A DNA stretch of 63,077 nt, the filler included, from Octopus bimaculoides (taxonomy: Eukaryota): NCBI RefSeq assembly GCF_001194135.2. It is 8 parts of 8 records of this genome, joined end to end, with 100 filler letters (N's around TTAATTAATTAA, not from the genome) between each part and the next. Parts side by side here need not be neighbours in the genome. Positions count along the whole stretch, not along the records: positions 19,114 to 21,945 come from NW_026326980.1; positions 22,046 to 34,793 come from NC_068997.1; 6 more parts are not named here. One strand, 5' to 3'. A program made the position numbers and the translations under genes. The notes under the pieces were generated by a model. The model saw only the letters and a list, made by a program, of their open reading frames with translations. It did no database searches and was not told where the DNA came from. Shown in pieces: positions 21,709 through 32,623 of this stretch. Position 1 is the first letter of the stretch, and each line of letters opens with the position of its first letter.

Positions 21709-21839
21709 GAATCTCTGAAGAGGCCTAGCGAATCATGCATGTACCCCCATTTCAGCATTTCATCTGCTAATTACTCCGGCAGGAGCTATTCAGATAGAAT
21801 GGAGCATACCAACGCTAGGCCGAAACAGCTGTAAGTTTC
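21709..21839 (+). ncRNA. Minimal type I hammerhead ribozyme motif (Penelope-like class)
   Basis: CTGAAGA 21715-21721; stem II GGCCTAGCG 21722-21730 / CGCTAGGCC 21813-21821 (9 bp perfect); GAAA 21822-21825; palindrome ACAGCTGT; GUA cleavage triplet 21831-21833; stem I GAATCT / AGTTTC with one mismatch. Confidence 0.85.
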
Positions 21840-22045
21840 TGTTTATTCTCAAATTCCTAATGTACTTTATAGTTGTAACCCCGATTGTTAATATAACATG
21901 GTTTGTCATAAACATTTGAATTTTGTGGTTTTTGTCATTTTAGTTNNNNNNNNNNNNNNNNNNNNNNNNNNNNNNNNNNNNNNNNNNNNTTAATTAATTA
22001 ANNNNNNNNNNNNNNNNNNNNNNNNNNNNNNNNNNNNNNNNNNNN

Positions 22046-22076
<31 letters not shown>

Positions 22077-23258
22077 AAAAATGAGTTTAAAGAGATATAT
22101 TATCCTGGCGATTACCGTGTTTCCTTATAATTCGGTTTCAAAATTTATTGAATACCTCTAAACTAAGAATATTCTCTTTGAAATGAGTGGAATGGTGAAC
22201 CGTATGAGAAGATGAGGTTAACCTGGGTCAAGATTCCTACAACTATTAATAGTAGTACCCATACATCCTAAAAACCCTTTATTCATTCAGTTTGCTGATT
22301 ACTTCAGTTTCACTTCGAAACGGCAGAGATTAAGGATACTGCTGAAACTGCACCGACTATAACACCAAGTTGCACATCCAACAGTGTACAGTCGATGCTG
22401 TTGAAACACACATAGGTCTAGAAAAACATACTGTAAATAAGTGTTAAATAAAATTATAGAAGTGAAACATCTCCGTTCTCTTTACCATTATTAATACTAT
22501 ATATATATATATATATAATTATGTGTATTTCTTCTATCTTAATGAATAAAAATTCTTCTGATAGAATAAATGGGTTAATAGAAACTAATGTAGCAAAGAA
22601 CACAAAATAACTGTGGTTTAGTTCCTGTTTTTAAGGCAGGAACTCCTTGAAATTTTGGTTATTTGAGTATATTTAAGAATTTAAGGANNNNNNNNNNNNN
22701 NNNNNNNNNNNNNNNNNNNNNNNNNNNNNNNNNNNNNNNNNNNNNNNNNNNNNNNNNNNNNNNNNNNNNNNNNNNNNNNNNNNNNNNNNNNNNNNNNNNN
22801 NNNNNNNNNNNNNNNNNNNNNNNNNNNNNNNNNNNNNNNNNNNNNNNNNNNNNNNNNNNNNNNNNNNNNNNNNNNNNNNNNNNNNNNNNNNNNNNNNNNN
22901 NNNNNNNNNNNNNNNNNNNNNNNNNNNNNNNNNNNNNNNNNNNNNNNNNNNNNNNNNNNNNNNNNNNNNNNNNNNNNNNNNNNNNNNNNNNNNNNNNNNN
23001 NNNNNNNNTATATATATAGATATAGATATAGATATATACACACAATATATATATATATATACACTCATACGTCCAAATTTATACATATGCACATGCATGT
23101 ACGCTCCCACACATTGATTGGTATGTGTTGACCAACCCACTATCCGGCAGCGTCCAATTCTCTAACGGTTTTTTTCAAATGAATCAAGTCATAACCTTAT
23201 CCATCTATTGCTTTCATAATCGGTCATAATGTCTTACGTTTAAGATGATTCCCATGCT

Positions 23259-23342
23259 TTCCCTGATGAGAAGGTTACAATTTTAATATCAAAGATCCCT
23301 ATGGATCACACAGGTTGTAATCCTTTGAAACATATGTAGGAA
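23259..23342 (+). ncRNA. Minimal type I hammerhead ribozyme motif (Penelope-like class)
   Basis: Stem I TTCC 23259-23262 / GGAA 23339-23342; CTGATGA 23263-23269; stem II GAAGGTTACAA / TTGTAATCCTTT (one bulge, G-U closing pair); GAAA 23327-23330; palindrome ACATATGT; GUA 23336-23338; AATAAA directly after. Confidence 0.85.
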
Positions 23343-24540
23343 TAAAGTATGCAATTATAACATGCGTTTTCTCCAATCCTTAAATTCTTAAATATATAGA
23401 TATATATATATAACAATCTACACGAGTAATGGGTATCCATCAAATCACCTGTCAATAATTTAATTACTCAATTGTAAAACACGAGAACAATAAGAACTGA
23501 AGTTGGTGCTCCGATACGACCATTCTCGTGATTGTTTACACATTTTCAATGATTTAATAAATCATAATAGTTCACTGCAAATTGGTTTGCATTTGAAAAG
23601 TATAAACAGGCATATCTCATGTTATTACGAATGCATTTTTTTTTCAGTTATATGTATTAAGAATGTATGAATAAAAAAAAATACCTATGACGGTCTTGTA
23701 ATAAAATATAACAATATAGAGCAACCAGAGAAGAAATGTAGTTAAAAGTACTGACAACACAGCAACTCTTCAAAGGACGCGTACACACACACACACACAC
23801 ACACACACATTTAATGAAAGCAGTATAATATAGTCAACATGATAACTGCTACTTTCCTTACAGCTACGTCATCGTTACACTCAGAAAGCATTATATAGAC
23901 TGATATAATTTTAAGCTTTCATCTTCTTACAAGAAAAATGTTATTGTAATATTTAATTTTTGGTGTGTTACCCGAGGAGAATAATATGATCGTTAGTATG
24001 TCGGCTAAACAAGTAAATGCTATTCACAGATCCATTGTTTCGGGTAAGCCATACCTCCGCTAAGCTGAAAAACATATTGCGCCATCTGTAATGTAGGTGG
24101 TGCAATATGATGCATTGTTTATGTTGTATTATTTCTACTGTTCAAAATTTTCTGTAACTCTAGATTCTGATTAACAGGAAATACTCATACTTGCATCTAT
24201 TTAGTGCTGAATATCCCAACAATGACAGCCTCAGTGTTACTGAAAAGCTCGGTATTACAGGTAGAATGTAACTCGTGGTATTCATCTACATATGTTTGTC
24301 CTTGGTAAGAAGGCAAATATATTTGTCCCTAATCTATTCAAATAGCTTCTATATCTTTTGTTTCTCAACAACTGCAACCCTTCAGTCAGTGAATTTTCAT
24401 TTTTGTACCACGTCTTCGTAAACTCCCGGAGAAAGTATTTGTACAATATAAAAACATCTACAATTGAATAGTTTTCAACATACCACACTCTTTTATGATG
24501 GTTGTCGAACNNNNNNNNNNCAGAATATATACTGGCTCCT

Positions 24541-30269: not shown

Positions 30270-31521
30270 GACGAATTGCAGGAAGCAGAAAGTGAAACTT
30301 AATCTACCTCTAATTTCGCGTTCGAATAAGAAGGCATAAATGACGTGGAGCTTTTGGAAGAGTAGATTACTAATATTTTGCACGAAGTTGTAGAAAACGC
30401 AGCACCAAACATAATATTTCCAGCAAAGTACTGTTCGTTTTCGACAATGCATCAAGCCACCCGATGACCTTAAGTGACCTCTCTGATAATTTGAGAATAG
30501 AATACACACCCAATAATATAACTTCTTTGCTTCACCCAAGATGTGATAGCTAACTTCAAGTTAAATTATCTAGAAGGACTTTCAAACAACTTATAAAAGC
30601 AATTGACAGAGAGGATAAATTTACAGTTAGAGACTTCTGGAAGAAGTTCACCATACTGGATGTTGTGGATAATATAGCTAAGTCATGGAATAAAGTGAAA
30701 CCCTCAGTAGAAAAATATATGGCCAGACTATATCTGTAATTTTACGAGTTTTCCAGTTGCAGGGAACTCTACATGAAATTTGCAAAGATATTGTGGCACT
30801 TGAAAATGATGTAGTTTGAAGAGCTCATGGAAATCATGACTGATGTGGTTGGGTTAATGTCTCATAGGAGAAAGTTTATGAAACTACGAGAGGATGCGGT
30901 TAGAACAAAAGCAAGACGAGAATACAAATGAAAACATCGAAATTCTAACTCCGCTTAAATTGACTGTAAAGAATATTTGTAAAGGGCTGGCACTCATAGA
31001 AGTTCTGATCATGTTTGCATGCTTTTAATCGTCCTAATCGTGAACGTAACATAAAAATTACATGGGAAGTTTATAATATGATGCGCCACAAACATCGAAC
31101 AACTTTGGACAAGTTCTTCATTCCTTCTTGATGGTAATGAACTATATAGTAGAAGATAATGTCCCCCCCCCATCCTCCCAGTAACTTTCATTCCACCATC
31201 TATCGCACAGTAGTTAATAGCTTTTATATTAGGAACGGTCTCTATCATGATATTACTAGCTGTATTTACTTCCTGAAATATTTCACTTCAAATGTTTTTA
31301 TGTACACGTTGCACTGTATATATGTTTAGAAATTTATTTTCGTGCATAAAAATGGTCATGTTGCTTTTGTTGTTATTGTTTACGAAAATATTCGTTGGAA
31401 CGCATCTCACTATATAGCGTGAACATCAGTGAGGAAATGGGAATATTAATTTCACCTTTATGGAATTTTGCGTTACGATAAAATTGTAAGGAATGACGGC
31501 TTTCGTAACGTGAGGAGTACT
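30270..31521 (+). mobile_element. Decayed Tigger/pogo (DDE_1) DNA transposon with right terminal inverted repeat
   Basis: Frameshifted translation DNASSHP...LRIEY..PN...IANFKLNYL / RRTFKQLIKAIDREDKFTVRDFWKKFTILDVVDNIAKSWNKVKPS, typical of Tigger-type transposases. TIR-like end CGTAACGTGAGGAGTACT at 31504-31521. Confidence 0.85.
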
Positions 31522-32355
31522 TTTGATATCTACATTTTACGTCTTTGGTGTGAAAAGGAAAAAAGAGAATACACAGCTATATCCAGCAAATTGTTCTTGT
31601 ATAAAATGAAATCATACCAAATCAAACTAAACGATTTTTCGTATCTGTGACATTTTACGAACTTTATCAAGTCAAAGCAAATGAAAGTAGGAAACCTTTC
31701 AGAATTTCTGAGAATTAAACAAGCTCGAAATTTATATGTTAATGTATTCACTTCAATAAGAAATGTCATGTATTCACTTCAATGAAAATATTACATCTTT
31801 ATGTATGGGATAAAATAAGTAGAATACAACAATGAATGGTAATAATTATAAAATTATAACCTGATAAAGAGGTAGGCATATTGAATCAATCCAACCTAAT
31901 TGTAATTTAGGGAGTTCTTCCTCATTCCCACGGTCCATGTGTGCCTGGAATAAAATAAAAGACATAATTTATAATTTAAAATAATAGATTGAAGAGTGGA
32001 TATGAGGTGATAGTGTGAAATTTATCCTAGCTAACCCTCCTTTGTCTCTCTCTCCCTCTCTTTCTTTCTCTCTCCCTCTCTTTCTTTCTCTCTCCCTCTC
32101 TTTCTTTCTCTCTCCCTCTCTTTCCTTCTCTCTCCTCTATTTCTCTCTCTAACTCTCTTCATATATATATAAGCTAATATTTAAGTGTTGGTTATGTTCC
32201 TAGTAGTACAATAAAGCACGTTCACTGCTTATGATTACCTGATTACACGGTAATTATACAATTATCGCTAGATTTACCTCAGGAATTCCTCAGTGTAAGT
32301 TTAGTATAAAACAAATGACAAAGAAGGAAAATGGAATACACGAGAAACTTTATTA

Positions 32356-32461
32356 CTCACAACGATCGTTTCGACACATCCTGCATCGATCCTTATTGGG
32401 TGGAAAACTATACAGTTAGTTGTGGTGCATCCCTCGGTGCAGAAGCGTCTTGTCAGGTGAT
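32356..32461 (-). ncRNA. Minimal type I hammerhead ribozyme motif with a core substitution (CUGACAA), Penelope-like class
   Basis: Minus strand: TCAC-CTGACAA-GACGC...GTGTC-GAA-ACGATCGT-T-GTGA, then AATAAA a few nt downstream. The inverted partial copy at 32571-32623 retains TGACGA. Confidence 0.75.
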
Positions 32462-32570
32462 GTAATAATAATTTTCCAATGGAATCTGTCCCTCACAATT
32501 CCTGCTCAATGGCTTAAACCTACGGCCACTAACAGCATGCGAAACAAAATTTATTGAACGAGATACCTTT

Positions 32571-32623
32571 TATTACACCACATGACGAGACACTTCCGCA
32601 CCGAGGTATGCACCACAACTAGT
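32571..32623 (+). repeat. Inverted partial copy of 32415-32468 (Penelope-like inverted terminal repeat arrangement)
   Basis: TTATTACACCACATGACGAGACACTTCCGCACCGAGGTATGCACCACAACTA aligns to minus-strand TTATTACATCACCTGACAAGACGCTTCTGCACCGAGGGATGCACCACAACTA; runs into a gap. Confidence 0.85.

Follow-up and report, generated by a model that had tools for sequence, protein, structure and literature searches.

A stretch of 63,077 nucleotides from the genome of Octopus bimaculoides (NCBI RefSeq assembly GCF_001194135.2), made of 8 parts of 8 records joined end to end and referred to here as the window, contains three hammerhead ribozyme motifs. All three have the type I hammerhead architecture, with a helix II of unusual length. 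With a probability of about 0.7, they are the leftover 3' ends (pseudo-long terminal repeats, or pseudo-LTRs) of three unrelated families of Penelope-like elements (PLEs), present as solitary truncated copies. The length of helix II is their sole departure from what is known; the 8-nt palindromic stem III which they share has already been published for PLE hammerheads. An earlier note on this DNA, made from the sequence alone, had located the three motifs, and all were found where it had placed them:

21709..21839 (+): motif 1, type I hammerhead with an intact core; core at 21715-21721, palindrome at 21825-21832, predicted cut after 21833.
23259..23342 (+): motif 2, type I hammerhead with an intact core; core at 23263-23269, palindrome at 23330-23337, predicted cut after 23338.
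32357..32460 (-): motif 3, type I hammerhead with a G8A core; core at 32456-32450, palindrome at 32369-32362, cut site after 32361.

A type I descriptor consisting of the core, a 4-bp stem II with a spacer of at most 300 nt, stem III and stem I was run on both strands of the window without demanding a palindrome. It gave exactly three matches, which are motifs 1, 2 and 3, and in each of them stem III was found to be a perfect 8-nt palindrome. Sixty local dinucleotide shuffles produced a mean of 0.37 matches to the same descriptor and never three, and with the palindrome required all 60 were without a match. A second control used generic long-spacer patterns in a viral scan, with at least 240 loci listed; both stem I and stem II were present in none of the 242 sequence-only core matches listed. 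Chance matching in AT-rich repetitive DNA is a most improbable origin of the motifs: long spacers do allow an occasional match per shuffled window when no palindrome is required, and motif 2, when folded entire, does not surpass its shuffles (z -0.5), but the palindrome that was not asked for is there in all three and in none of the 60 shuffles, none of the core matches listed in the second control has both stems, and the conservation of motif 1 is highest at the core. For motif 1 a chance origin is largely refuted. A relaxed scan of the window for further type I or type II motifs gave only two candidates, at 37187 (+) and 61469 (-), both poor and with mutated cores. Elsewhere, the motif-1 pattern had no match in viral contigs, and its 14 matches in metagenomes were dismissed, the upstream core being present in 0 of 14.

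The core (C3 U4 G5 A6 N7 G8 A9 / G12 A13 A14 A15 / U16 H17) is complete in motifs 1 and 2. In motif 3 it is incomplete, with an A at position 8. The core pattern of the earlier note, CUGAN(G/A)A, is present, but its 'G/A' conceals this A8 and with it the loss of the C3-G8 pair. This pair belongs to the established chemistry of the hammerhead, and since G8A breaks it, cleavage by motif 3 is predicted to be impaired. The same pair was tested in Poseidon PAc, a PLE of Anolis carolinensis, and found to be needed for cutting (PMC11167929). Stem I is short throughout. Motif 1 has five of six pairs (2 bp, a U.U mismatch, 3 bp), motif 2 has 4 bp, and motif 3 has 4 bp which can be extended to 10 bp. 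The G10.1-C11.1 closing pair is G-C in motifs 1 and 3 and G.U in motif 2. Three helices around the core with an open-ended stem I were obtained in constrained folds, and the weak stem I of motif 1 did not form in its constrained monomer fold. No similarity between the motifs was found by BLAST and their inserts have no 6-mer in common, which agrees with the claim that they are unrelated in sequence and represent three independent families. Their grouping within 11 kb is a different matter, since three points in 10.75 kb of 63 kb are not significantly clustered (P about 0.08).

Helix II spans 100 nt in motif 1 (21722-21821), 57 nt in motif 2 (23270-23326) and 77 nt in motif 3 (32449-32373). Inserts of 82, 34 and 67 nt had been given before; the long inserts are real, but those figures mix different stem cut-offs. 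The helix II domains fold better than their shuffles, with z of -3.7, -2.4 and -2.5 for motifs 1, 2 and 3. That of motif 1 is as follows:

21722..21821 (+): long helix II of motif 1; 9 basal bp, an inner helix 21762-21766/21791-21795 and a terminal hairpin at 21774-21785.

The inner structure of this arm is predicted from the window copy alone, with pair probabilities of 0.73-1.0. The earlier note had suggested that the inserts could supply tertiary contacts, a proposal which found no support here. Pairing of the inserts with 25-nt flanks, as in pseudoknots, was at chance in five of six tests; the sixth, a 7-bp insert-flank duplex in motif 3, was equalled in 17 of 500 shuffles and is not significant after six tests. 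Nor do the inserts hold a common motif.

Copy and variant data cover motif 1 only. The 251 bases around it were found in part in 20 of the 24 runs listed (four organisms, 10 studies). Contigs matching the region at 80% likeness numbered 535, 283, 194 and 39 in four runs, the first three being runs of three organisms and contig depth not being a copy number; the 39 contigs, from a presumed RNA run, show neither transcription nor cleavage. The motif 1 region is a high-copy dispersed repeat present in several organisms:

21703..21945 (+): segment of the high-copy repeat in which motif 1 lies; contigs continue past 21945, and loose T-rich ends lie before 21703.

No single contig listed spans the full stretch. 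The whole insert is covered in all four contig runs, so that, in motif 1 at any rate, the long helix II belongs to the family and is not an isolated insertion.

The distribution of variants within this family was also considered. Of the 45 positions in the core and basal stems, 2 carry variants at a frequency of at least 5%; the insert has 18 such positions out of 86, and the downstream part 16 out of 106. Core and basal stems differ from the insert at Fisher p 0.011, a test in which sites are not independent and contigs were chosen by likeness. Both core and basal-stem variants are compatible with pairing, and one of them closes the stem I mismatch. Of the 16 variant letters that fall at modelled pairs in the insert and stems, 10 leave the pair intact or restore it; a further 6 letters lie at unpaired places. 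The pair 21765/21792 varies on both sides, unphased. The window copy departs from the family majority at 21803 and 21808, where the majority base is near-fixed (99%). In the modelled register the majority bases would complete two further helices and turn the insert into a rod. This register was drawn with the variants already in view and depends on pair checks at single sites; applied to the window copy, its pair probability does not exceed 0.02 and its cost is 5.5 kcal/mol. These data support selection on the core and basal stem of motif 1, and for the inner insert fold they are suggestive only. Beside motif 1, a 14-nt direct repeat (21682-21695 and 21863-21876) flanks the motif at a spacing of 181 nt, and a variant near-fixed in the family does away with its single mismatch (21872). 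It may be due to chance in T-rich DNA.

The resemblance of the three motifs to published PLE hammerheads is close. Those of animal PLE pseudo-LTRs (Cervera and de la Pena 2014, PMC4209133) are likewise type I, with a CUGANGA/GAAA core, a short stem I, a palindromic stem III and an AU-rich 3' flank; they are mostly solitary, and in schistosome PLEs they also occur as opposite-strand pairs 100-700 bp apart. The pattern of the motifs fits the consensus of Fig. S3 of that paper (core, palindromic stem III, U-rich 5' and AU-rich 3' flanks), in which several rows have UAAA straight after stem I, as does motif 2. Hammerheads of the Hydra clade and of Chlamys/PLE-X (Craig et al. 2021, PMC8557442, File S2) are again type I and lie near the 3' end. 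Their stem III is 6-10 nt long and palindromic or nearly so in many rows; a preference for (TA)n and the presence of inverted truncated copies are further likenesses (PMC8557442). Insertion at (TA)n is a trait of the Neptune, Naiad and Hydra clades. Poseidon PAc also carries its hammerhead in a pseudo-LTR, but its reading frame begins inside stem II (PMC11167929), and no such frame was recognised at the motifs. In at least one Naiad consensus (PMC8557442 supplement), a GAAA box and a palindrome precede a CUGANGA box near the 3' end, together with pairing arms. By eye, this arrangement appears to read like a type II hammerhead, in elements reported to be without canonical hammerheads.

The difference lies in helix II, which reaches about 23 nt at most in the 56 motifs of PMC4209133 Fig. 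S3, against 57-100 nt here. Two spike-moss motifs in PMC8557442 File S2, which are marked there as deviating, have a loop 2 of 35 and 29 nt, with a helix II no longer than 53 nt; a length of 57-100 nt is not attained in any of the file's 34 rows. The sole octopus hammerhead listed in it, Hydra-1_oBim, carries an 8-nt loop on a stem of 7 bp and differs in sequence from the motifs. No animal PLE or octopus hammerhead with an arm of 57-100 nt was found in the literature searched, which lay outside Lunse et al. 2017, Repbase, Dfam and bioRxiv supplements. The view that stem II departs from the short-stem form thus holds, helix II exceeding the published lists. Long arms have precedent, and 57-100 nt widens the published range.

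The surroundings of motifs 2 and 3 add to the likeness with PLEs. Partial copies in inverted, head-to-head orientation were found beside both, and both copies are cut by assembly gaps:

22668..22687 (-): inverted copy, 20 nt and exact, from the 3' tail of the motif-2 element; abuts a gap of 321 N at 22688-23008.
23343..23396 (+): 3' tail of the motif-2 element, rich in AU and running up to a TA microsatellite; AATAAA lies at 23341-23346.
32570..32621 (+): second copy, inverted, of motif 3's 5' half; 52 nt, 88%, running into a gap of 719 N at 32624-33342.

The source of the 20-nt copy is 23377-23396, the end of the motif-2 tail at the TA run (E 2.5e-4 in the window), and the 321-N gap would be about the right size for the rest of an inverted copy. 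The partial copy of motif 3 lies head to head with the motif, 101 nt apart. It retains G8 and has C3 changed to A. Since G8 is kept there though C3 is lost, the core of the motif-3 family was presumably intact, each copy having decayed separately. Inverted truncated copies are typical of PLE insertions (PMC8557442), and the arrangement in two of the three motifs matches this habit. No inverted or direct copy of motif 1 was found in the window, and neither was a direct copy of motif 2 or 3 such as a tandem or partial-tandem pseudo-LTR would give, although gaps could hide one. The AATAAA reported just 3' of stem I' in two motifs is present (23341-23346; 32354-32349), but it overlaps stem I' or its extension, and this hexamer occurs in the window at 2.5 per kb.

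In O. vulgaris, 190 PLE families account for 6.83% of the genome (PMC13282606), and because of this abundance several PLE ends in 60 kb are to be expected. The window is AT-rich, full of microsatellites and contains 5,876 N. All of its 409 stop-free fragments of at least 45 aa that passed a complexity filter were scanned with Pfam, which revealed LINE (long interspersed nuclear element) relics together with those of DDE transposases. The absence of a PLE frame beside the motifs is as expected for truncated copies. With no PLE reading frame found in the window, PLE membership of the motifs is an inference, and a likely one.

Several observations weigh against a PLE origin. No reverse transcriptase (RT) or GIY-YIG remnant of a PLE was found among the 409 fragments, so the linkage that the earlier note had proposed to look for was not seen within the window, and the sole RT near the motifs is that of an APE-type LINE. 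Five motif strings are absent from the consensus files for Naiad, Chlamys and Hydra, which include octopus elements and in which long cells are incomplete; no named PLE family is matched for that reason, and one motif 10-mer occurs in these files twice, in unrelated contexts. Rfam gave no hammerhead match at the gathering score, and of 53 Rfam matches in 21000-33500 at E up to 5 none was a hammerhead. The unpaired base between positions 9 and 10.1 that is usual in minimal PLE hammerheads is missing in the best register, which together with the lack of an adjoining PLE frame in the window sets the motifs apart from those of PMC4209133; several published PLE motifs with a palindromic stem III are also without this base (PMC4209133; PMC8557442 File S2). 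Six of the 16 variant letters at modelled motif-1 pairs break the pair. Of the three, motif 1 alone has a clearly U-rich 5' flank (U 0.64, against 0.40 and 0.40). TA runs lie 60-210 nt 3' of each cut site, and with 63 such runs in the window this proximity is weak evidence.

As 3' ends of PLEs, the motifs would have been active in the parent element. Within a tandem or partial-tandem transcript, strand exchange between two same-motif copies would join their palindromes into a single 8-bp stem III, and each copy would then cut after its GUH triplet. The palindromes self-duplex with 8 of 8 pairs at -11.1, -7.0 and -10.0 kcal/mol in motifs 1, 2 and 3, and monomer folds with a 2-bp stem III lie 5.2, 2.7 and 2.4 kcal/mol above the minimum, respectively. 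Where stem III is short and palindromic, PLE hammerheads cleave weakly and as dimers (PMC4209133; reviewed in PMC6765202), and that of the anole PLE cut only with the element's protein (PMC11167929). By analogy with such published hammerheads, cutting would probably have been helped by a protein of the element. The long helix II lies outside the catalytic core and would most likely be a tolerated structural extension or a docking site for protein. It is also possible, as a tentative proposal that we consider unlikely, that several octopus PLE families have each acquired a large folded helix II domain to which the element's own protein binds to turn cutting on, and that these long-armed ribozymes form a high-copy class missed by short-loop descriptors and by Rfam. 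The window copies, solitary and truncated among microsatellites, would cut poorly or not at all. Dimers between families were rejected, as their stem III duplexes, at -1.6 to +0.9 kcal/mol and with 5-6 of 8 pairs, are weak and the arms of stem I are mostly mismatched. Cleavage at this locus therefore appears unlikely, since each copy is alone on its strand and the three motifs could not complement one another.

The earlier note had spoken of PLE- or retrozyme-like remnants. The motif-1 copies, the inverted copies of motifs 2 and 3 and the match to published patterns speak for the PLE-like part, and no retrozyme tandem array was seen. In a retrozyme-like reading, the motifs would be monomers of short, non-coding and non-autonomous units: the hammerhead would cleave their tandem transcripts, and the products would form circles that a PLE enzyme inserts again in trans, with the long helix II as part of the rod-like fold of the circle. 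Animal non-LTR retrozymes (PMC7229834; 10.64898/2026.07.22.740005) are similar in being non-coding and high-copy, with type I hammerheads, a weak or palindromic helix III and dimer cutting. There is no coding sequence beside any motif, motif 1 has a high copy number, and solitary monomers are common and were proposed to be derivatives of PLE pseudo-LTRs (10.64898/2026.07.22.740005). Non-LTR retrozymes are, however, defined by tandem ribozyme-bearing units, and neither a direct copy nor a tandem unit of any motif occurs in the window. The contigs show no joints over the 251 motif-1 bases, though a longer unit could escape notice in so short a span. In canonical retrozyme hammerheads, helix I has 6 bp and helix II has 4 bp, with loop-loop contacts (PMC4209133), unlike motifs 1-3, and inverted partial copies are a trait of PLE insertion. 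This origin is considered doubtful.

Far less probable is that the motifs were co-opted by the host, as cleavage sites in an intron or a long non-coding RNA, where the inserts would serve regulation or tertiary contacts and so make the monomer active. The cores of motifs 1 and 2 are intact and lie on the same strand 1.5 kb apart, and the inserts are structured, as such a role would have it. Against it, no host gene was recognised among the 409 fragments, insert-flank pairing is at chance, and the solitary motifs would have no partners in one another. The bases by which the motif-1 copy departs from its family majority lie where the majority would pair in the model, which fits decay, and motif 3 carries G8A. 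The suggestion of self-cleavage in a host intron or long non-coding RNA was not upheld on these grounds.

Other features of the window, in addition to the PLE-like 3' ends, were also noted. Octopus proteins are the best named relatives (79% and 73% identity) of the RT fragment at 19357-19977; it was rejected as the partner enzyme of motif 1 since its relatives carry an APE endonuclease and a PHD finger, which makes it a LINE. The fragment belongs to a decayed APE-type LINE at 19115-19977 (+) whose RT has an embedded PHD finger. Broken frames at about 24900-25700 (-) have no Pfam match and look by eye like what we take to be the N-terminal region of a Helitron. The segment 25517-25732 is duplicated directly at 26246-26464 (219 nt, 88%). 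Two weak DDE_1 matches under the curated cut-off at 30374-30736 (+) are likely a relic of a pogo/Tigger-type transposase. A repeat of 100-400 nt, probably a family of tRNA-type short interspersed nuclear elements, is found in many copies of 67-88% in both orientations (958-2470, 5692-6128, 7713-8161 and 9177-9906, with further copies at 27096-27209, 37277-37669 and 44516-44651). A perfect 30-nt inverted repeat with a TA-rich spacer at 26736-26841 adjoins a gap and attracts spurious microRNA matches; the sub-threshold Rfam microRNA matches were dismissed as microsatellite artefacts. Ten places such as 21946-22045 consist of padding (44 N, a fixed 12-mer, 44 N) which reflects assembly and is not biological.

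For the host locus, the three motifs are probably inert repeat debris. In the elements from which they would derive, hammerheads are poor cutters alone, and one of them needed the element's protein. Because its 100-nt arm is conserved, the natural family of motif 1 gives a means of asking whether such a domain recruits that protein or only pads the fold, and counts of cephalopod hammerheads made with short-loop descriptors may be too low.

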